This document shows positions 3,593 through 20,424 of a stretch of DNA of 64,000 bases, one piece after another. The stretch is from Escherichia coli (GTDB taxonomy: Bacteria; Pseudomonadota; Gammaproteobacteria; Enterobacterales; Enterobacteriaceae), in assembly GCF_024298765.1 (NCBI RefSeq), contig NZ_CP101210.1. One strand, 5' to 3'. A program made the position numbers and the translations under genes. The stretch's first letter is position 1; each line of letters opens with the position of its first letter. The notes beneath the pieces are model-generated. The model ran no database searches. It had not been told where the DNA came from and saw only the letters and a list, made by a program, of their open reading frames with translations.

Positions 3593-4327
3593 TTATGCTG
3601 CGACAACAATCCCCTTTTCGGCAAATGTAGAGCGTAGTCGGCGGGCGAATGCCAGTGCGTGCTCGCCGTCGCCATGCAGGCAGACCGTTTGCGCCGTGAC
3701 CGTTGCCCATTCGCCGGTGATGCTTTTGACTCTGCCGTGTTGCACCATCTCCAGCGTTTGCGCCAGCGCCTGTTCTTCGTTTTCAATCAACGCGCCTGGC
3801 TGGCTTCGCGGCACCAGCGAACCGTCTGCCTGATAACCGCGATCGGCAAACACTTCCTCGCGCGTTGTCAGGCCATATTGCTTGCCTGCACGAATCAGCT
3901 CGCTTCCTGCCAGCCCGACGAGAATCAATGCCGGATCGCAAGCGTATACCGCTCTGGCGATGGCGTCTGCCAGTTGTGCCTCTTTCGCTGCCTGGTTGTA
4001 TAACATGCCGTGAGGTTTGACATGACGCATAACACCGCCTTGCGCACGGGCAATCGTTGCCAGCGCGCCAATTTGATACAGCGTCTGGGCGTAAACGGTT
4101 TCTGGCGGCAGCTGCATGACGCTGCGCCCAAAATTTTCCCTGTCGGGAAAACTCGGGTGAGCGCCAATCGCAACACCATTTTTTATTGCTTCACGCACGC
4201 AAGCCTGCATGGTTTGCGCATCGCCTGCATGAAATCCACAGGCAATATTGGCAGAGGAAACCAGCGTTAATAGCTCTGCGTCGCTGGCATAGCCTTCGCC
4301 CAGATCGGCGTTCAGGTCAATTTTCAT
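3593..4327 (-). CDS. pxpA: 5-oxoprolinase subunit A (LamB/YcsF family)
   Basis: 244 aa, [13 protein letters not shown]-terminus; in pxpB-pxpC-pxpA cluster. Confidence 0.85.
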
Positions 4328-5249
4328 TGTGCAGCCGCCACGCTAATTGTTCGAAATAACGTTGCTGATCTTGCCGTGCTTTCAGTGCTTCTTCCAGTGA
4401 ACACTGGACAAAATGAATCGGCTGACCGAGCGGAATTTGCGCCAGATGGTACATATCAGCCTCGATGATACAGGCAATACGCGGATAACCACCGGTGGTC
4501 TGTGCGTCGTTCATCAACACAATCGGCTGCCCGTTATGTGGCACCTGCACCACGCCCGGTAACAAACCGTGAGATAACAGTTCGCGATCGGTGGTGCGTT
4601 TTAAAATTTGCCCCTGTAAGCGATAGCCCATTCGGTTACTTTGCGAGCTAAGCTGCCAGGGCGAACGCCAGAATGCATCCTGCGAGGCGCGATCGAACTC
4701 ATGATATTCCGGCCCCGGCAAGGCGCGAATGCGGTTGCCCCACAGCAGCTGTTTAACGCCCTGCGCTTCCATAAAATCACGCTTCGATTTGCCAATCGGG
4801 AGTCGGTCACCATCCTTTAGTAAACGGCCTTCCAGCCCGCCAATCCCCACTTTGAGATCGGTGCTGCATGACCCCATTACCGGCGGAACATCAATACCAC
4901 CCGCGACCGCCAGATAACTGCGCATCCCGTGCTGCGGGCGTTTAAGCGTTAAACGCTGACCTGCTTTCATCGGCAATCGCCAGCCGGTCCAGACGGCGTT
5001 ATCATCCAGCCGCGCTTCGCAACCGGCCCCCGTCAGAGCAAACCACCCATCAGTTTCGAACTCAACCGTTAACTGACCGAGCGTGATCTCCAGCGCGGGG
5101 GCATTGGCGTCATTACCCACCAGTAGGTTAGCAATGCGTAACGCGGGCATATCCAGTGCGCCGCAGTGGCTGATACCCGACTGGCGAAAACCGTGACGAC
5201 CGCCATCCTGCACAGTGGTATACATGCCCGCACGAATAATCTTCAGCAT
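4317..5249 (-). CDS. pxpC: 5-oxoprolinase subunit C
   Basis: 310 aa ORF overlapping neighbours by a few nt (operon). Confidence 0.8.
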
Positions 5250-10384: not shown

Positions 10385-10461
10385 TACTGCTCCTGAACGG
10401 TTTACAGGAGTAAGTGTAGACGTTGGGAAATGAAATTTGTGAAGTTAATCCTGTTGTAGCA

Positions 10462-11439
10462 GGGCAAGATTACGAAAGCCCGCTCCCCGTAAGGACTGAC
10501 GCCAGGTAGTTTCTGTCCATAGCTGCCCTTTCTATTCAAACGTGAAATCAATAAGTTCATCAGGGACATCACAAACAATATGAAGACGGGTTTCTTCTCT
10601 GCCGTGACTCTTTTCACTAATTGAGTAACTGTCGTGCTCTGGATTATTTAATTCTTTCAGCGGAAATTTTTCCTCAAAGGCTTTATTAAGCCGCCACCTG
10701 ATTTCCTTTTACAGCGAATAAATAATCACCTCCCTGTTTTTGTATCTTCTCTGCAATATCTTTCTGGCAACTCATCGCATCAGTTGTGATGATTTTTCCT
10801 TTAATATCCAGCATGTTAAGAAGTTCAGGGATAGCTGTAATTTCATTGGATTTCTCATCCGTCCTGATCTGTCCGATGACCAGACTGTGCATTGTTGAGA
10901 ACGCACTAATGACATGAATCGCTCCCCTGCGGCGACTCTTGTCATAAGAATGCCGGAGCGTTTTTCCATCAATTGCAATAACGTCTTTATCATCTGAAGA
11001 ATGGCAGTCACGCATCCAGTTAATAAAGCACTCGTGAAATTTTGAAGGACTGATACAGGATACAACTCTGGCGATGGTATCGTGAACAGGAATACCATTT
11101 TAAAAATCACCATATTGTTTTAAAAAATCGAGATGTGTTTCCCCAAAATCCTCTATATCTTCCCAACCATCTGCACCAGAAATAACGGCACAAATAGTCA
11201 ACAGTAGAATATCCGACAATTTATGTTCCACTTTTCCAGGATTGTCTGTAATCGGGAATAACAGAAATATGTTCCATCAATTTTTTAAGTACCATTTTGT
11301 TCTCCTTAATTATGTAAGGAGTATTTGATCATGTATAAGCAATAAAAAACAGCTTTAGGTAATGAGGAATATCTCAATTTTTAAACATAAAATGCGAATT
11401 GTCTAGTACAAAAAAGCAGCGTTACGTGATCTTTCCCTG
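10462..11439 (-). mobile_element. degenerate ISAs1-family (H-repeat) copy with internal deletion and frameshift
   Basis: Both ends match the ends of the intact copy at 13087..14388 (CAGGGxAAGATTACG... and ...CGTTACGTGATCTTTCCCTG); about 320 bp missing from the 3' part; ORF fragments 10686..11015 and 10772..11113. Confidence 0.7.
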
Positions 11440-11532
11440 AGAGGTACAGGAACTGCGGGAGGAACTTTATCAGGTTAAACAGGGGTTAAGGGGATGCGGA
11501 ACGGGATGTTTAGTGTGCTGAACGAAAGCTAA
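11440..11532 (+). pseudogene. 3' fragment of SymE-family gene, truncated by the ISAs1 copy
   Basis: ...QELREELYQVKQGLRGCGTGCLVC-type tail homologous to the end of 14396..14725; begins exactly at the IS end. Confidence 0.6.
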
Positions 11533-11534
11533 AT

Positions 11535-11572
11535 AATAAAAAAGCCGGGAAGATCTTATCTTTCCCGGCCAT
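11535..11572. terminator. hairpin + T-run between convergent genes
   Basis: aagccgggaagatcttatctttcccggc inverted repeat. Confidence 0.5.
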
Positions 11573-11587
11573 CTTGCCATACATTAA

Positions 11588-12022
11588 TTATTTATGAATA
11601 TAATATAACTGAACATCATATTCATTATCACTTAAAACTATTAGTCGATCGGGAAATGTAAATGCTAATGAAAGATCATATGTTTCATTTATCGAAAACA
11701 AACTCAATATGAAATTTGAAAAATTTTCGACATGAAGAGATATGCAAACATCTCCATTATAGAATATATTGCAAAGAATATCTTTTTTCACATTCAGTGT
11801 ACTTTCAACATCTCTCGCTAGATCATTAATATTTAAAGGTAAATTGAAAACTCTCCTTTCAATAATATTATCGGTTTTATTTATTGCCATTAGCATTTCT
11901 CGATGCCACATGAAGTCATTCTTACGTAAGAATGATACATCAAAGGAAGTGACACCATTTAATTTAGAAGCATAATCTTTTGCTCTAATTAAATTTAATT
12001 TATCTTCAAGGCTAATTTTCAT
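11588..12022 (-). CDS. putative immunity protein of orphan Rhs C-terminal toxin
   Basis: 144 aa ORF starting 11 nt inside the 3' end of the toxin stub; position-based call only. Confidence 0.5.
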   Translation of the reverse strand: MKISLEDKLNLIRAKDYASKLNGVTSFDVSFLRKNDFMWHREMLMAINKTDNIIERRVFNLPLNINDLARDVESTLNVKKDILCNIFYNGDVCISLHVENFSNFILSLFSINETYDLSLAFTFPDRLIVLSDNEYDVQLYYIHK

Positions 12023-13030: not shown

Positions 13031-13086
13031 TTTAATAATCCAAATGTAAATTACTTAAAATACCCTCTGCCTCATTCCAGGCATTG

Positions 13087-14388
13087 ACATGGGAACCCAG
13101 GGAAAGATTACGAAAGCCCGCTCCCAGCAAGGACTGACGCCAGATAGTTTCTGTCCATGGCTGCTTTTCGCATCTTACGTCTTAACCCTGCCTTGAATAC
13201 CTTATCATTCGTCAAAATATTAATAGCGATGTGCCGTATCCCTGAAAATAATTCTGCTGCATTTCCTCTTCTTATTTTGCAGTCGTCTTCATTCATTACC
13301 ACGTCCAGACGCCAGTGCAGCTTATTCTCCACGTGCCAGTGGTTTCGGATTGCTGTGGCGAACTTCTCTGCGGTTAAATCAGCAGAACTGATATAATATC
13401 TGACCGTCATTTCTGGCTCTTTCTTTTGTTCTGCTATTATTGACCGAAAGGAGACTGCCACGCATAATTTCTTCAGACCTTTCCATTCAAACGTGAAATC
13501 AATAAGTTCATCAGGGACATCGCAAACAATATGAAGACGGATTTCTTCTCTGCCGTGACTTTTTTCACTAATTGCGTAACTGTCATGCTCTGGATTATTT
13601 AATTCTTTCAGTGGGAATTTTTCCTCAAAGGCTTTATTAAGCCGCCCCTGATTTCCTTTTACAGCGAATAAATAATCACCGCCCTGTTTTTGTATCTTCT
13701 CTGCGATATCTTTCTGGCACCCCATCGCATCAGTTGTGATAATTTTTCCTTTAATATCCAACATGTTAAGAAGTTCAGGGATAGCTGTGATCTCATTGGA
13801 TTTCTCATCCGTCCTGATCTGTCCGATGACCAGACTGTGCATTGTTGAGAACGCACTAATGACATGAATCGCTCCCCTGCGGCGACTCTTGTCATAAGAA
13901 TGCCGGAGCGTTTTTCCATCAATTGCAATAACGTCTTTATCATCTGAAGAATGGCAGTCACGCATCCAGTTAATAAAGCACTCGTGAAATTTTGCAGGAC
14001 TGATACAGGATACAACTCTGGCAATGGTATCGTGAACAGGAATACCATTTTCAAAATCACCATATTGCTTCAAAAAATCGAGATGTGTTTCCCCAAAATC
14101 CTCTATATCTTCCCAGCCTTCTGCACAAGAAATAACGGCACAAATAGTCAACAGTAGAATATCCGACAATTTATGTTCCACTTTCCAGGCTTGTCTGTAA
14201 TCGGGGATAATAGAAATATGTTCCATCAATTTTTTAAGTTCCATTTTGTTCTCCTTAATTATGTAAGGAGTATTTGACCATGTATACGCAATAAAAAACA
14301 GCTTCAGGTAATGAGGAATATCTCAATTTTTAAACATAAAATGCGAATTATTTAGTACAAAAAAGCAGCGTTACGTGATCTTTCCCTG
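13087..14388 (-). mobile_element. ISAs1-family insertion sequence (H-repeat), apparently intact
   Basis: About 1.3 kb; imperfect terminal inverted repeats; single 378-aa transposase ORF. Confidence 0.8.
13108..14244 (-). CDS. ISAs1-family transposase (H-repeat-associated protein)
   Basis: 378 aa, [32 protein letters not shown]..., matches Rhs-associated H-rpt proteins. Confidence 0.9.
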
Positions 14389-14395
14389 GTTAATC

Positions 14396-14725
14396 ATGGC
14401 TGAACACGATATTACGCCAGAAATCACCATTTCCAAAACACAGCGCCGCTATAAAGTCGGCTATGTCAGAGCCCGCCACATAAACAGCAAAACCTACATG
14501 ACCACGTACTACTCACGACACCCCAGCCTGAACCTCAAGGGCGACTGGCTGAAAGAGGCCGGATTTGATACCGGGCGGGGTGTCACGGTGAAGATTTCGG
14601 AGGGGTGCCTGACCATCATCGCTGACAGTGACGAGGTGCAGGAACTGCGGGAGGAACTTTATCAGGTTAAACAGGTGGTTAAGGGGATGCGGAGCGGGAT
14701 GTTTAGTGTGCTGAACGATAATTAA
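14396..14725 (+). CDS. SymE-family (type I toxin-like, AbrB-fold) protein
   Basis: 109 aa; LKGDWLKEAGFDTGRGVTVKISEGCLTIIA resembles the SymE core [30 protein letters not shown] (from memory); start trimmed from ORF 14375. Confidence 0.7.
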   Translation: MAEHDITPEITISKTQRRYKVGYVRARHINSKTYMTTYYSRHPSLNLKGDWLKEAGFDTGRGVTVKISEGCLTIIADSDEVQELREELYQVKQVVKGMRSGMFSVLNDN

Positions 14726-14727
14726 AT

Positions 14728-14772
14728 AATAAAAAGCCGGGAAGATTTAATTTTCTTTCCGGCTTTGTCTAA
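14728..14772. terminator. bidirectional hairpin terminator
   Basis: aagccgggaagatttaattttctttccggctt between convergent genes. Confidence 0.5.
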
Positions 14773-14776
14773 TTAA

Positions 14777-15145
14777 TTATTCAGGAAATTTTCTATTTTT
14801 ATATGATGACCATAAGTGAGTGATCGACCAAGAGTTTTCCTTTCCGAGTACAAAACTTTTGGAGATTATCTCAATATCATCAGATATACGCGAAGATATT
14901 TCAGAATTATTAATCACCCTGAATGAGTATTTAAATGCCTTTTCTCGCAAGGAATCAATAAACTCAATATCATCATCCTGAAAACTTTCCTTATCTAATG
15001 AATTAAACTCACTCATCCAGCAATCATCAAACTCCGGTTCATCTCTTGAGTCTAATGCACTATCAACATTTAATGATTTAAGAAAATCAAAAAATGACGG
15101 GGTGGATAAACAGTTATCAATTTCAATTAGCTTATTATTAATCAT
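14777..15145 (-). CDS. putative immunity protein of orphan Rhs toxin
   Basis: Acidic ~122 aa protein; ATG overlaps toxin stop in TGATG arrangement. Confidence 0.55.
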   Translation of the reverse strand: MINNKLIEIDNCLSTPSFFDFLKSLNVDSALDSRDEPEFDDCWMSEFNSLDKESFQDDDIEFIDSLREKAFKYSFRVINNSEISSRISDDIEIISKSFVLGKENSWSITHLWSSYKNRKFPE

Positions 15146-15790
15146 CACATTAACCCTTGTCCTTTGAGCCAAACCTCTATTAAATCAACAGCCTTGGATG
15201 GTGTCACATTAGTACCTAGCGTATAAGTTCCATTTGGAGATTTAACATCAACTCTGATGTCATCTAATTTTGAATACGCTTTTCTGTAAGCATCAAATAA
15301 CTCTTTATCCGAACCAAGGAAATCACCTTGTCTTGGACCTATCACATCTCGTTCCGCATGATGTAAACGCCAGTGATTATGTTCTGGATTTTCTCCTCTA
15401 GGGAATAATGTTGGGCGAGTTTTATCAGATCGGGAAACTTCAAACGGACGTCCTTTAGATTTACGAACCGCAGGAACATGATGTCCAGATTCACTCACGC
15501 CCATACACTTCTTCGTTAATCCAAGGGGATCGATCCAGCTTAACGGATTCGGTGCATAAGCATACAGGTTTAACCCGCCTCTTAGCCCTATCGGGTCCGT
15601 TACCATGAACCGCCCGACATCCGGATCATAGTACCTGTGCAGATTGTAATGCAGCCCCGTTTCCCTGTCGAGGTACTGTCCCTGGTAGCGCAGGTTCTGC
15701 TCCACCCCGCCGTGGTCCTTCTCCTGTATCGTGTTACCCCAGACCTGATACCCCGTCTCCCACACGATTTTCCCGTCACTGTCCGTCATC
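15145..15790 (-). pseudogene. orphan rhs C-terminal fragment: ~90 core codons + DPLGL + ~120-aa toxin tip with GHH signature
   Basis: ORF 15145..15825; core part near-identical to main rhs (MTDSDGKIVWETGYQVWGN...DPIGLRGGLNLYAYAPNPLSWIDPLGL); 5' end cut by ISAs1. Confidence 0.65.
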
Positions 15791-15792
15791 TC

Positions 15793-17084
15793 CAGGGCAA
15801 GATTACGAAAGCCCGCACCCCGCAAGGACTGACGCCAGATAGTTTCTGTCCATGGCTGCTTTTCGCATCTTACGTCTTAACCCTGCCTTGAATACCTTAT
15901 CATTCGTCAAAATATTAATAGCGATGTGCCGTATCCCTGAAAATAATTCTGCTGCATTTCCTCTTCTTATTTTGCAGTCGTCTTCATTCATTACCACGTC
16001 CAGACGCCAGTGCAGCTTATTCTCCACGTGCCAGTGATTTCGGATCGCTGTGGCGAACTTTTCTGCGGTTAAATCAGCAGAACTGATATAATATCTGACC
16101 GTCATTTCTGGCTCTTTCTTTTGTTCTGCTATTATGGACCGAAAGGAGACTGCCACGCATAATTTCTTCAGTCCTTTCCATTCAAACGTGAAATCAATAA
16201 GTTCATCAGGGACATCACAAACAATATGAAGACGGGTTTCTTCTCTGCCGTGACTCTTTTCACTAATTGAGTAACTGTCGTGCTCTGGATTATTTAATTC
16301 TTTCAGCGGAAATTTTTCCTCAAAGGCTTTATTAAGCCGCCACCTGATTTCCTTTTACAGCGAATAAATAATCACCTCCCTGTTTTTGTATCTTCTCTGC
16401 AATATCTTTCTGGCAACTCATCGCATCAGTTGTGATGATTTTTCCTTTAATATCCAGCATGTTAAGAAGTTCAGGGATAGCTGTAATTTCATTGGATTTC
16501 TCATCCGTCCTGATCTGTCCGATGACCAGACTGTGCATTGTTGAGAACGCACTAATGACATGAATCGCTCCCCTGCGGCGACTCTTGTCATAAGAATGCC
16601 GGAGCGTTTTTCCATCAATTGCAATAACGTCTTTATCATCTGAAGAATGGCAGTCACGCATCCAGTTAATAAAGCACTCGTGAAATTTTGCAGGACTGAT
16701 ACAGGATACAACTCTGGCAATGGTATCGTGAACAGGAATACCATTTTCAAAATCACCATATTGCTTCAAAAAATCGAGATGTGTTTCCCCAAAATCCTCT
16801 ATATCTTCCCAGCCTTCTGCACCAGAAATAACGGCACAAATAGTCAACAGTAGAATATCCGACAATTTATGTTCCACTTTCCAGGCTTGTCTGTAATCGG
16901 GGACAATAGAAATATGTTCCATCAATTTTTTAAGTTCCATTTTGTTCTCCTTAATTATGTAAGGAGTATTTGATCATGTATAAGCAATAAAAAACAGCTT
17001 TAGGTAATGAGGAATATCTCAAATCTTAAACATAAAATGCCAATTATTTAGTACAAAAAAGTAGCGTTACGTGATCTTTCCCTA
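15793..17084 (-). mobile_element. ISAs1-family copy, transposase frameshifted
   Basis: Same ends as the copy at 13087..14388; ORF split into 16332..16940 and 15803..16156; 1-bp difference (gccgccacctgattt vs gccgcccctgattt). Confidence 0.75.
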
Positions 17085-17089
17085 AAACG

Positions 17090-17555
17090 CAGACCCAGTT
17101 GTGCATAGTACACATGGTACGCAACAGCCTGCGGTTCGTGACGTGGAAAGACTATAAAGCGGTAACCCGTGACCTGAAACAGGTTTACCGCGCGGCCACG
17201 GAAGAAGGCGTGTTGCAGGCGCTGGATGCGTTCGGGAAGGAATGGGATGCACGGTACCCGCAGATAAGTCGCAGCTGGCGGGCAAACTGACCGAATGTTG
17301 CCACCTTCTTCGTGTACCCGGAGGCGATCCGAAAGGTTATCTACACCACTAACGCAATCGAATCGCTGAATAGCGTCATCAGACATGCGATAAAGAAAAG
17401 GAAAGTGTTCCCGACAGATGAATCGGTGAAAAAAGTGGTGTGGCTGGCTATCCAGTCAGCCTCACAGAAATGGACGATGCCACTTCAGGACTAGCGGATA
17501 GCCATGAGTCGCTTTATTATCGAGTTCGGTGACCGCCTTGACGGTCACTTCTGAG
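17090..17555 (+). pseudogene. IS256-family (Mutator-type) transposase, 3' remnant with frameshift
   Basis: ORFs 17099..17290 and 17312..17494 carry ...VHMVRNSLRFVTWKDYKAV... and ...IYTTNAIESLNSVIRHAIKKRKVFPTDESVKKVVWLAIQSASQKWTMP... Confidence 0.6.
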
Positions 17556-17947: not shown

Positions 17948-19735
17948 TTATTTACGCCGAGTTATTTTTGCATTATCAGAAAGAACAATATCACCTTTCA
18001 CAGTCAATTCATCTATATGGTATCGAGGGTTTGTTACCCACTCTAATTGCTCGTTAGGTACATCTGTTTCCACATAATCTCTACCTTTCCCACGACCTAT
18101 TTGATATTTCGCCTCTATGTCTACTTGACTGAGTGGTTTTTTATTCGCAGGTTCCAAATATACACGACCGTTATCATGCGCCTTAATTATCCCACTTTCA
18201 GCAATCGCATTTGAACCTTTACGATTAGTATAATGCCGCACACGAGTAGTTCCATTACAGAGCTCTTTTTTTAATCCGAGTGGATCAATATATTTCAGCG
18301 GATTAGGCGCATAAGCATATAAGTTCAACCCACCCGCCAGCCCTATCGGATCCGTTACAATGAACCGCCCGACATCCGGATCATAGTACCTGTGCAGATT
18401 GTAATGCAGCCCTGTTTCCCTGTCGAGGTACTGTCCCTGGTAGCGCAGGTTCTGCTCCACCCTGCCGTGGTCCTTCTCCTGTATCGTGTTACCCCAGACC
18501 TGATACCCCGTCTCCCACACGATTTTCCCGTCACTGTCCGTCATCTCTTCCGGCGCGCCGTTCACATCCGTGTGAAAATACAGTATCCGGTTCGGGCCCT
18601 CTTTGCCCGCCTTATCCACCCGCGCCAGCGGTTCATAACTCCCCGGGTCCCTGTAGATGTACAGGCTGTCTGTTCCCTCCGGCCTGCTCTCCTGCGCCAG
18701 CCGCATTCCGTCCCATAAAAATGCCGTCCGGTTGTACGGTTTACCGTCAGGGCTGATGTGCTGTTTTTCCGTCCGCCTCCCCAGCGCATCGTACACATAC
18801 CGGTACGTTCCCCGCGCTGTCGTCACTTCCACCATCCGGTGTTCCGCATCATAACGGTAACTCTGCGTGCCGCTCCGCCCCTCCTTTTCCACCGCACGGC
18901 CAAATTCGTCGTAACGGTAGTGCACACCACGGTAAGACATCAGCCGGTTGAACGGCACCACGCTGTTTTCTGCCGTGGCCCTTTCCCCCGCGCGCCGCCC
19001 CAGCAGGTTTCCCGCCGCGTCGTACTGCCAGCTCGCCAGATACCCCTCATCCTCCGAGCGGCACGCCGTGATGCGCCCCGTGGGGTCGTAGAAGTAATCC
19101 GTTTCCCCCCGCCGGCTGTGCCGCGTCTTCAGCAGTTCATCCTCGCCACTGTAGCTGTACTGCCGGTCCGTGAACGTCTCCGGTACCACCCCGCGCATCC
19201 CGCTGTATGTCTCCCTGCGCTTCAGCCGCCCGGCGGGGTCGTAAAGCTGCCGCGTGCTCAGTCGCCCCTGACTTCTGAGCACTTCACGGTGCAGGGCGTC
19301 ACGAGTGAACTCGCTGATGACCTCCCGGTCCAGATTTATCTGCTGGAGATGGCCGCTGCCGTAGTACAGATGACGCTGCGTTCTGCCGTCCGGAAAGGTG
19401 GTGGCTGTCCGGTTGCTGAGTTCATCGTACTGATGGGTCAGGACGCCCTGCGCCGTCTCCTCAGTCAGCATCCGCCCCAGTCTGTCGTAACTGAAACGGA
19501 TAATCTCCGGTGCGTCTGTTTCCCCGGCATCCGACCGTCGGCGGCGGATTTCCAGTAACTGGTCTGCCGCATCATGGACGTATTCCGTACGGCTATCGGC
19601 TGTCTCCTTTGCCGTGAGCCGGCCCGCCGCATCACGTGCCAGCCGGTGGCGGATTTCACCGCCCCGGTCCCCGGTGAACACCACTTCCGTGACCGCGTTC
19701 AGCGCGTTGTAGCGGTACGTCTGGCGGCAGCCGTC
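17948..19735 (-). pseudogene. orphan rhs fragment: ~490 core codons + ~105-aa alternative toxin tip, 5'-truncated
   Basis: ORF 17948..19753; homology to main rhs starts at ...CRQTYRYNALNAV; 18392-19735 is near-identical to 20910-22253. Confidence 0.75.
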
Positions 19736-19764
19736 GTGCTGCCAGCGCAGCATCTGCCCAACCG

Positions 19765-19978
19765 CAGCGACACGCCGGTGATCAAAATCAGCGCCAAATG
19801 GCTGAGAGAAGCGGGATTTGAGATCGGCACGGGCGTTACCGTGAAGATCTCGGAAGGCTGCCTGATCCTGCTTGCAGATAACAACGGAGTACAGGAACTG
19901 CGCAGGGAACTTTATCAGGTTAAACAGTCTGTTAAGGGGATGCGGAACGGGATGTTTAGTATGCTGAACGATAATTAA
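19765..19978 (+). pseudogene. SymE-family gene, C-terminal fragment
   Basis: ...IKISAKWLREAGFEIGTGVTVKISEGCLILLADNNGVQELRRELYQVKQSVKGMRNGMFSMLNDN homologous to 14396..14725; N-terminus lost at the orphan rhs junction. Confidence 0.6.
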
Positions 19979-19984
19979 ATAATA

Positions 19985-20020
19985 AAAAGCCGGGAAGATT
20001 TAATTTCTTACCCGGCTTTT
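19985..20020. terminator. bidirectional hairpin terminator
   Basis: aaaagccgggaagatttaatttcttacccggctttt. Confidence 0.5.
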
Positions 20021-20043
20021 GATAACTTAATAATATTATAATC

Positions 20044-20424
20044 CTAAATCAATCTTTTTTTTAATTCCCTTATTTCAGGAGTTAATGCAAAACTGTCTTC
20101 TAAAGATTCGTCATCCAAGGCCCAGTAATTAATAAGATCTATATGATTTTTATAATTATCAAGCAGAGTGTTGAGTGCTTTTACAATAACTTTATCTGAA
20201 GGAGGTACTCCAGAAGATAATAAATCATTACAGACATCAAGGGCTAAAGTCATTAATTCATTCTTCCCTTTTTGTGAGTAGCCATTATTTAAATATGCAG
20301 CAATATATTTACTTAACCACTCTTTAGTTCGATATTTTTCAGGCAGTTCATAAGCCCAATCTTGTGTAAACTTATCACTCACTGGTACACCAAGTTCACT
20401 ACAGATTTTATCTATTTCATTCAT
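20044..20424 (-). CDS. putative immunity protein of the main Rhs toxin
   Basis: 126 aa ORF 18 nt downstream of rhs stop; position-based call. Confidence 0.55.
   Translation of the reverse strand: MNEIDKICSELGVPVSDKFTQDWAYELPEKYRTKEWLSKYIAAYLNNGYSQKGKNELMTLALDVCNDLLSSGVPPSDKVIVKALNTLLDNYKNHIDLINYWALDDESLEDSFALTPEIRELKKRLI

Follow-up and report, generated by a model that had tools for sequence, protein, structure and literature searches.

In a 64-kb stretch of Escherichia coli DNA (hereafter the window), which represents an RhsC-type locus adjoining ybgA and matches RefSeq genomes at 100%, one end of the insertion sequence (IS) ISEc1 abuts the 5' end of an open reading frame (ORF) of the SymE toxin family. 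Our analysis suggests, with a probability that we estimate at roughly 60%, that this ORF is a decapitated, untranslated toxin gene, whose internal antisense promoter would now point into the IS. The features central to this reading are the following (window coordinates; aa, amino acids).

13098..14388, minus strand: ISEc1 (ISAs1 family), 1291 bp, with termini CAGGGAAAGAT...ATCTTTCCCTG and CAGGG-type terminal inverted repeats
13108..14244, minus strand: intact gene of a 378-aa ISEc1 transposase, divergent from the SymE-like gene (DDE_Tnp_1_assoc 3.1e-32, DDE_Tnp_1 2e-30)
14389..14395, plus strand: GTTAATC spacer, the sole 7 native bases left of the SymE leader, preceded by the IS terminus ...CCCTG
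14396..14725, plus strand: intact SymE-family ORF, 109 aa plus stop codon (PF08845 SymE_toxin, 1.6e-20)
14320..14401, minus strand: site of a would-be SymR-like RNA body, now IS sequence with no stable fold
14409..14436, minus strand: predicted SymR-like antisense promoter in codons 5-14, TTGGAA-N16-TAATAT, with a predicted transcription start (+1) near 14401

A preliminary description of this DNA had placed an ISAs1 end about 7 bp before the start codon of the only intact SymE-like gene. Both statements hold within the window: the IS ends at 14388, a 7-bp spacer occupies 14389-14395 and the ATG begins at 14396, while the other SymE-like sequences are fragments (see below). The ISEc1 terminal sequence at the junction is ...CTTTCCCTG, the junction itself runs from ...aaaaagcagcgttacgtgatctttccctg through gttaatc into ATGGCTGAACAC, and positions 14370-14400 read gttacgtgatctttccctg, then gttaatc, then ATGG. 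The element shows the marks of the ISAs1 family (a DDE_Tnp_1_assoc N-terminal domain, a length of ~1.3 kb and CAGGG inverted repeats), and RefSeq names its transposase 'ISAs1-like element ISEc1 family transposase'. The boundary at 14388/14389 is supported by the 1291-bp length and the inverted repeats, by alignment of 13098-14388 with the two other IS copies of the window, and by thousands of other ISEc1 copies in E. coli genomes, whose match to a query laid across the junction ends at query position 60-61 (corresponding to 14388/14389).

No target-site duplication was found at 13098-14388 (flanks catgggaacc and gttaatcatg), nor at any of the three ISAs1/ISEc1 copies of the window, which implies later recombination or deletion. 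A simple insertion with target-site duplication is thereby ruled out, and the junction is a product of deletion or recombination. When native upstream regions of related genes were compared by blastn with the whole window, only chance matches were obtained; together with the missing duplication, this means that the native region has been deleted or recombined away and not merely displaced. The reciprocal junction, searched for with a constructed query (native leader plus IS left end), was not found in 5426 genomes, the top matches being unrelated flanks or two-piece matches. The three IS copies of the window (10460-11439, 13098-14388 and 15793-17084) share one orientation, and each marks the edge of an orphan Rhs-CT/immunity cassette. 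An IS256-family transposase, in fragments and with an internal stop, is found at 17099-17494 between an ISAs1 copy and an orphan immunity gene.

The assignment of the ORF to the SymE family is supported by its score against Pfam SymE_toxin (73.3 bits, cut-off 29) and by 45% identity to K-12 SymE over aa 27-91 (E 7.6e-13); the K-12 protein is currently annotated as nucleoid-associated. RefSeq uses the same ATG at 14396, under the label 'SymE family type I addiction module toxin'. An in-frame GTG at 14375, inside the IS, was considered as an alternative start and rejected, as it has no Shine-Dalgarno sequence (-1.6 kcal/mol) and all homologues start MAEHDITPE. The ratio of nonsynonymous to synonymous substitution rates (dN/dS) among SymE-like alleles is 0.15-0.8; the values for alleles with a Shine-Dalgarno sequence, mostly 0.15-0.5, point to protein-level constraint in the family. 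The protein has a hypervariable patch at aa 25-41 (14468-14518; e.g. RARHINSKTYMTTYYSR vs GISHTNRKTKVPTGYSR) flanked by an invariant N-terminus and a conserved C-terminal two-thirds, and the alleles look mosaic.

What should stand upstream of this gene can be read from its relatives (loci with L numbers), in which 22 to >300 bp of upstream sequence are conserved and comprise a GAGGT Shine-Dalgarno sequence, a SymR-like RNA gene and a gene for a Cro/cI-type helix-turn-helix protein (cHTH). The least decayed of them, L008 (E. coli MP1), L035 (strain 200164) and L022 (an Erwinia metagenome-assembled genome), have the cHTH gene upstream of SymE (HTH_3, 2.9e-14), and L006b, L021 and L034 have its remnants there. 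The spacer from cHTH to SymE, about 75-78 bp, consists of TGATwwwTAACGC, a long hairpin and GCTCACCACAAGCAACTAATCGAGGTAGTTAATC, directly followed by the ATG; a cHTH gene or remnant with this ~75-bp spacer is present in L006b, L008, L034 and L035, and L002 and L009 retain 90 bp. On its opposite strand the spacer matches Rfam symR over the full 77 positions, ending 5-6 nt inside the coding sequence (CDS), with scores (49.9 bits for L008, E 6.5e-9 in a local search; 48.3 bits for L002 and L006) that sit below the Rfam gathering score of 61 bits. The relatives' RNAs are predicted to form two hairpins like those of K-12 SymR (-35 to -37 kcal/mol, z-score -5.4 to -6.1), the second being wholly different in sequence among L008, L002 and L006b. 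These are individual folds; pair counting on a MAFFT alignment was dropped because indels shift the stems out of register. The Rhs-associated SymE subfamily thus does possess an antisense RNA of the SymR type, and its native complement also includes a cHTH gene.

Both genes together are found upstream of SymE at L008 2585-3364, L035 595-4463 and L022 ~3685-4330, and such loci could be a dual-control intermediate. A weak CTG-N10-CAG box (10/20 to the LexA consensus) adjoins the 3' end of the SymR-like gene at L035 4054-4073 and L002 3927-3946, in the relative position of the K-12 symE LexA box; L008 and L006b have not conserved it. In L035 (1-8195) and L008 (1-6133) genes for a XerC-like integrase, a DNA primase, cHTH and SymE adjoin convergent orphan Rhs-CT/immunity cassettes, and the SymE module may constitute the terminus of a mobile island delivering Rhs cassettes.

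The Shine-Dalgarno sequence, the SymR-like RNA gene and the cHTH gene are all missing from the window. Alignment places the IS end between positions -8 and -7 of the native leader, where the native sequence ...GAGGTA followed by GTTAATCATG is replaced by ...CCCTG followed by GTTAATCATG. The best duplex with the anti-Shine-Dalgarno sequence reaches -2.2 kcal/mol in the window and in L003 (a second locus with the same junction), equal to the median of random 20-mers, compared to -4.4 to -8.4 kcal/mol in 11 other variants and -6.4 in K-12 symE. The junction has removed all but 13 nt of the SymR-like RNA gene: Rfam symR has no match at E<=10 in 14280-14480, and the 82-nt equivalent of the RNA in the window is unstructured (-5.7 kcal/mol, z-score +1.95). 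A cis-encoded SymR antisense RNA gene lying over the 5' untranslated region (5' UTR), Shine-Dalgarno sequence and start codon, as in symER, is therefore not present in the window. Control of this copy by LexA is ruled out, as no CTG-N10-CAG box occurs in 13050-14800 in a scan that recovered the K-12 symE box at 15/20. A tblastn search with the L008 cHTH protein finds nothing in the 64-kb window, which thus holds no cHTH-SymE two-gene module. The replacement of the native 5' region by the IS terminus, as asserted in the preliminary description, is borne out by the loss of the leader, the Shine-Dalgarno sequence and the SymR body from the window.

The further proposal that transcription reads out of the IS fared differently. 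An IS end 7 bp from a SymE-like ATG does invite the view that ISEc1 drives the gene, with the loss of SymR and LexA control leading to unregulated expression of a toxin, the more so as outward or hybrid promoters are known from IS elements of other families. A consensus scan of 14100-14850 gave 2 promoter-like sites where 1.6 are expected, neither of them directed outward from the IS terminus. The plus strand of 14212-14395, covering the terminal ~175 nt of the IS, contains no candidate of at least 8/12, that is, no outward -35/-10 pair at a workable distance within the terminus. At a lower threshold one plus-strand candidate emerged, TTTCCA-18-GATAAT at 14182-14211, which could be counted in favor of read-out; yet it lies inside the transposase gene, ~185 nt upstream of the ATG and at chance level. 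The transposase is divergent, the genes to the left of the IS are also on the minus strand, and neither the ATG nor the GTG at 14375 is preceded by a Shine-Dalgarno sequence. Moreover, the junction is stable in 85 complete genomes, which is hard to square with unregulated expression of a harmful protein. Overall, activation of the gene by ISEc1 appears improbable.

What the junction has most probably left in place is the antisense promoter. In K-12, SymR starts 6 nt inside the symE CDS from a promoter embedded in the ORF, and a mutation in its -10 element, CATTCT of codons 5-6, abolishes SymR (PMC1891008). The minus strand of the window has TTGGAA-N16-TAATAT-cgtgttc-AGCCAT at the same codons as K-12 ...TAGAAT-gcgtgtc-AGTCAT, so that in 14436-14401 TAATAT falls on codons 5-6 and is followed, after 7 nt, by the A of AGCCAT as the predicted +1. 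The motif is identical in 12 of 13 compared variants, including those from Citrobacter, Yersinia and Erwinia; in the sole departure, L011, the -10 TAATAT is changed to TAGAAT, the K-12 symR hexamer. Third-codon positions are variable in 4 of 19 cases in codons 2-20 as opposed to 56 of 89 in codons 21-109 (Fisher p=0.0017). Judging from these sequence comparisons, the promoter most probably survived, with its +1 near 14401. The preliminary description had expected any equivalent antisense control to be lost, unless an antisense promoter survived within the coding region. At the level of sequence only, such a promoter is intact at 14409-14436: the RNA body has gone and the promoter has been kept. 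The predicted antisense transcript heads into the IS end on the transposase strand, with the transposase ATG (14244) about 157 nt away and no terminator predicted between the antisense +1 and the transposase start.

In the mechanism that we propose, Rhs cassettes carry a cHTH-SymR-SymE module at their distal end, convergent to rhs-rhsI, and the junction would be a decay state of this module. An ISEc1-associated deletion or recombination would have brought the transposase-proximal end of the IS up against position -7 of the SymE-like gene, taking away the sense promoter region (with any LexA-like site), the cHTH gene, the Shine-Dalgarno sequence and the SymR-like gene minus 13 nt. The ORF would stay intact, disarmed and not IS-activated; as no promoter or ribosome-binding site can be recognised in front of it, it most likely goes untranslated. 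The antisense promoter, if active, would make a chimeric, unstructured transcript through the IS end towards 14244, which would still pair perfectly with any sense RNA that spans the SymE start. The anatomy of the junction, its losses and the conservation of the motif are shown by the sequence, whereas the silence of the ORF and the activity of the antisense promoter are what we infer from it.

Several points weigh against this reading. Translation without a Shine-Dalgarno sequence is possible, as is transcription from weak or non-sigma-70 promoters of the IS. The antisense promoter agrees with the sigma-70 consensus at 8 of 12 positions, about the same as the functional K-12 symR promoter, and the conservation of codons 1-20 could stem from gene conversion or from constraints on translation initiation and not from a promoter. 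The ORF is intact in both alleles with the -7 junction (window and L003, 84% aa identity), and the protein could be under selection; recombination within the invariant 5' end accounts for the two intact ORFs equally well. The dN/dS of 0.79 between the two was considered as a measure of selection after the junction and set aside as uninformative, because they resemble different Shine-Dalgarno-bearing alleles and the junction was probably moved by recombination.

A rather unlikely alternative to a silent ORF is low-level expression that is still antisense-controlled, be it by the chimeric cis RNA, by an RNA like IsrA or Ssr1, or by a SymR-like RNA acting in trans. Such expression would agree with the intact antisense promoter motif and with an intact ORF whose alleles show dN/dS <1. 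A possible source of a trans-acting RNA exists outside the window: genomes with the window locus hold, at another Rhs locus (L009), a second intact SymE-like copy with a complete SymR-like RNA, and the latter is perfectly complementary over 13 nt (-7 to +6) to the start region of the window copy. An IsrA-like RNA comes into consideration through one further feature.

14467..14595, minus strand: Rfam isrA (RF01385) match inside the SymE-like CDS, 117.6 bits (gathering score 51)

Salmonella IsrA is reported to be cis-antisense to its neighbour STM0294.1n, with inverse expression of the RNA and the overlapping gene (PMC2330248), in line with this alternative. On the other hand, low-level expression needs a sense promoter and a ribosome-binding site, none of which is evident, and the chimeric antisense RNA would have neither a stabilising structure nor a terminator. 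The isrA match reflects homology to the Salmonella locus; it follows from CDS homology and is silent on any promoter here. Taken together, the isrA match and partial Ssr1 matches occupy 14467-14595, 14426-14818, 19714-20075 and 11402-11575, all on the minus strand, opposite the SymE-like gene and fragments of the window.

The ORF might also have been kept for reasons other than its protein, as a homology block for the exchange of Rhs cassettes or as an antisense or 3'-UTR template of the convergent immunity operon, the junction itself being neutral. The arrangement downstream of the ORF bears on this possibility.

14733..14766, both strands: bidirectional terminator-like hairpin, -21.8 and -16.8 kcal/mol, z-score -6.0 and -4.3
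14777-15172, minus strand: convergent immunity gene

The suggestion draws on the finding that, in the window as at other loci, each Rhs-CT/immunity cassette has a SymE-like gene or fragment marking its distal end, on the mosaic make-up of the alleles, with an invariant 5' end and 3' third around a hypervariable centre, and on the mapping of the Ssr1 and isrA RNAs to the opposite strand (PMC4782007). Nevertheless, the dN/dS values of Shine-Dalgarno-bearing alleles speak for selection on the protein, recombination at homology blocks is conjectural, and the hairpin (a 13-bp stem with U-runs on both strands) separates the SymE-like gene from the immunity gene as a strong bidirectional terminator. 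We consider retention for such reasons very improbable, and continue to regard a disarmed toxin gene as the likeliest state of the ORF.

Two further SymE-like sequences, both fragments, are present in the window.

11440..11592, plus strand: 3' fragment of a second SymE-like gene, directly abutting a deleted ISAs1 copy (10460-11439) at the same IS end
19766..19975, plus strand: SymE-like fragment, aa 40-109, 67% identity, abutting the truncated 5' end of an orphan Rhs gene

The first junction (11430-11470) reads CCCTG followed by AGAGGTACAGGAACTG, the IS end abutting codon ~80; within it AGAGGTA corresponds to the native Shine-Dalgarno region (-14 to -8) and CAGGAACTG to SymE from codon ~82 onward. 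This is suggestive of an older junction at -14, followed by deletion between two GAGGT repeats. The Rhs gene beside the second fragment is encoded at 17948-19753 on the minus strand, and the junction between them (19753-19975) is a cassette-displacement scar; in the equivalent genome RefSeq annotates the fragment as a 243-nt 'SymE family' CDS.

To place the junction among its relatives, the SymE-like 5' region was surveyed in complete E. coli genomes, where it occurs in 201 of 5426 (470 places). The main upstream states, counted by the best place per genome and therefore as lower bounds that overlap, are as follows.

ISEc1 end at -7 (window junction): at least 85 genomes
ISAs1 end at -90: at least 73 genomes
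ybgA plus a 34-bp IS left-end remnant fused at -22: at least 115 genomes
cHTH 3' end plus complete SymR-like gene: at least 13 genomes

Other states include an IS end inside cHTH (L006b), an IS interior fused to the cHTH 3' end (L034) and the IS end at codon ~80 described above (window 11439). In all the decay states listed, an ISAs1 element stands upstream of SymE with its transposase divergent. This pattern is consistent with one or a few old insertions that were later reshaped by nested deletions and recombination; repeated targeting of the SymE 5' region by ISAs1 is also possible. The -7 junction is found at two different Rhs loci (window and L003) whose SymE alleles show a 16% difference at the protein level, which indicates that the junction itself moved by recombination. 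E. coli strain 104 (NZ_CP029164, 4152404-4152800) and APEC O2-211 are examples of strains that carry it. Over ~15 nt the left end of the IS (GCCCGCTCCCAGCAAG) resembles the native leader of SymE (ACCGCTCACCACAAG). The L004/L016-type deletion junction lies at this stretch (L004 3974-4007, L016 ~3950-4000, window 13116-13131) and was therefore probably microhomology-mediated.

The closest described system is K-12 symE/symR (Kawano, Aravind and Storz 2007, PMC1891008). The window protein belongs to the same family (PF08845), the RNAs predicted in relatives with an intact upstream region are likewise 77-nt, two-hairpin antisense RNAs that start 5-6 nt inside the CDS and match symR at full length, and the predicted -10 and +1 of the antisense promoter fall on the same codons. 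In contrast to K-12, the ISEc1 terminus has replaced the SymR-like body, the 5' UTR, the Shine-Dalgarno sequence and any LexA site in the window, and the subfamily resides at Rhs loci with a native upstream cHTH gene instead of an hsd/mcr context. The same study described predicted cHTH-SymE operons, neighbourhoods of the Prim-Hel and RHS types, and upstream conservation that hinted at small RNAs (sRNAs), and proposed that control by an sRNA displaced the transcription-factor gene (PMC1891008). L008 and L035, in which primase, cHTH (HTH_3) and SymE lie beside Rhs cassettes, resemble these operons (Fig. 7A of Kawano et al.), with the difference that the least decayed copies carry both cHTH and a SymR-like RNA, while the window copy has neither. 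A literature search on SymE with Rhs, with ISAs1 or H-repeat, and on IsrA with SymE returned only the 2007 neighbourhood figure and passing annotations, and nothing was found on the ISEc1/SymE-like junction at -7. As for IsrA and Ssr1 (PMC2330248, PMC4782007), both Rfam families match the strand opposite Rhs-locus SymE-like genes; the matches follow from CDS homology. By these matches the published sRNAs IsrA (Salmonella) and Ssr1 (Shigella) appear to run antisense to SymE-like genes of Rhs loci.

Delivery of a promoter by an IS has in common with the window the position of an IS terminus immediately upstream of an intact ORF, and differs from it in that here no outward -35/-10 is detectable, the ribosome-binding site is destroyed and the transposase is divergent. 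Promoter capture in reverse, from the host antisense promoter into the IS, is the likelier direction. A more far-reaching version, in which a constitutive host SymR-type antisense promoter drives read-in through the ISEc1 end into the transposase gene, and cHTH-SymR-SymE is the terminal addiction module of Rhs-delivering islands, seems to us doubtful. If true, a host toxin-antitoxin promoter would drive an IS instead of the IS driving the toxin; integrase/primase islands would deliver Rhs-CT/immunity cassettes ending in a cHTH-SymR-SymE module with dual control by protein and antisense RNA; and the SymE 5' region would be a recurrent docking and decay point, explaining why H-repeat/ISAs1 elements have long been seen in association with Rhs loci.

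By itself the junction is of little weight, being one of several decay routes open to a toxin-antitoxin module that terminates Rhs cassettes, and a fresh example of a known event, the IS-associated (IS-mediated) decay of a toxin-antitoxin locus. Its interest for the family lies in the layout of symER: as the antisense promoter is inside the ORF, an IS arriving upstream removes the RNA body and not the promoter. Since the RNA body can be removed with the ORF intact, the annotation 'SymE family type I toxin' does not imply a functional toxin-antitoxin pair. The comparison with relatives also shows that a cHTH gene and a SymR-like RNA both belong to the native state of SymE genes at Rhs loci. More interesting than the junction are the leads to which it points, namely the dual control by cHTH and SymR, the integrase/primase islands with Rhs cassettes, and the position of isrA and Ssr1 antisense to SymE-like genes, which could help to reinterpret both RNAs.

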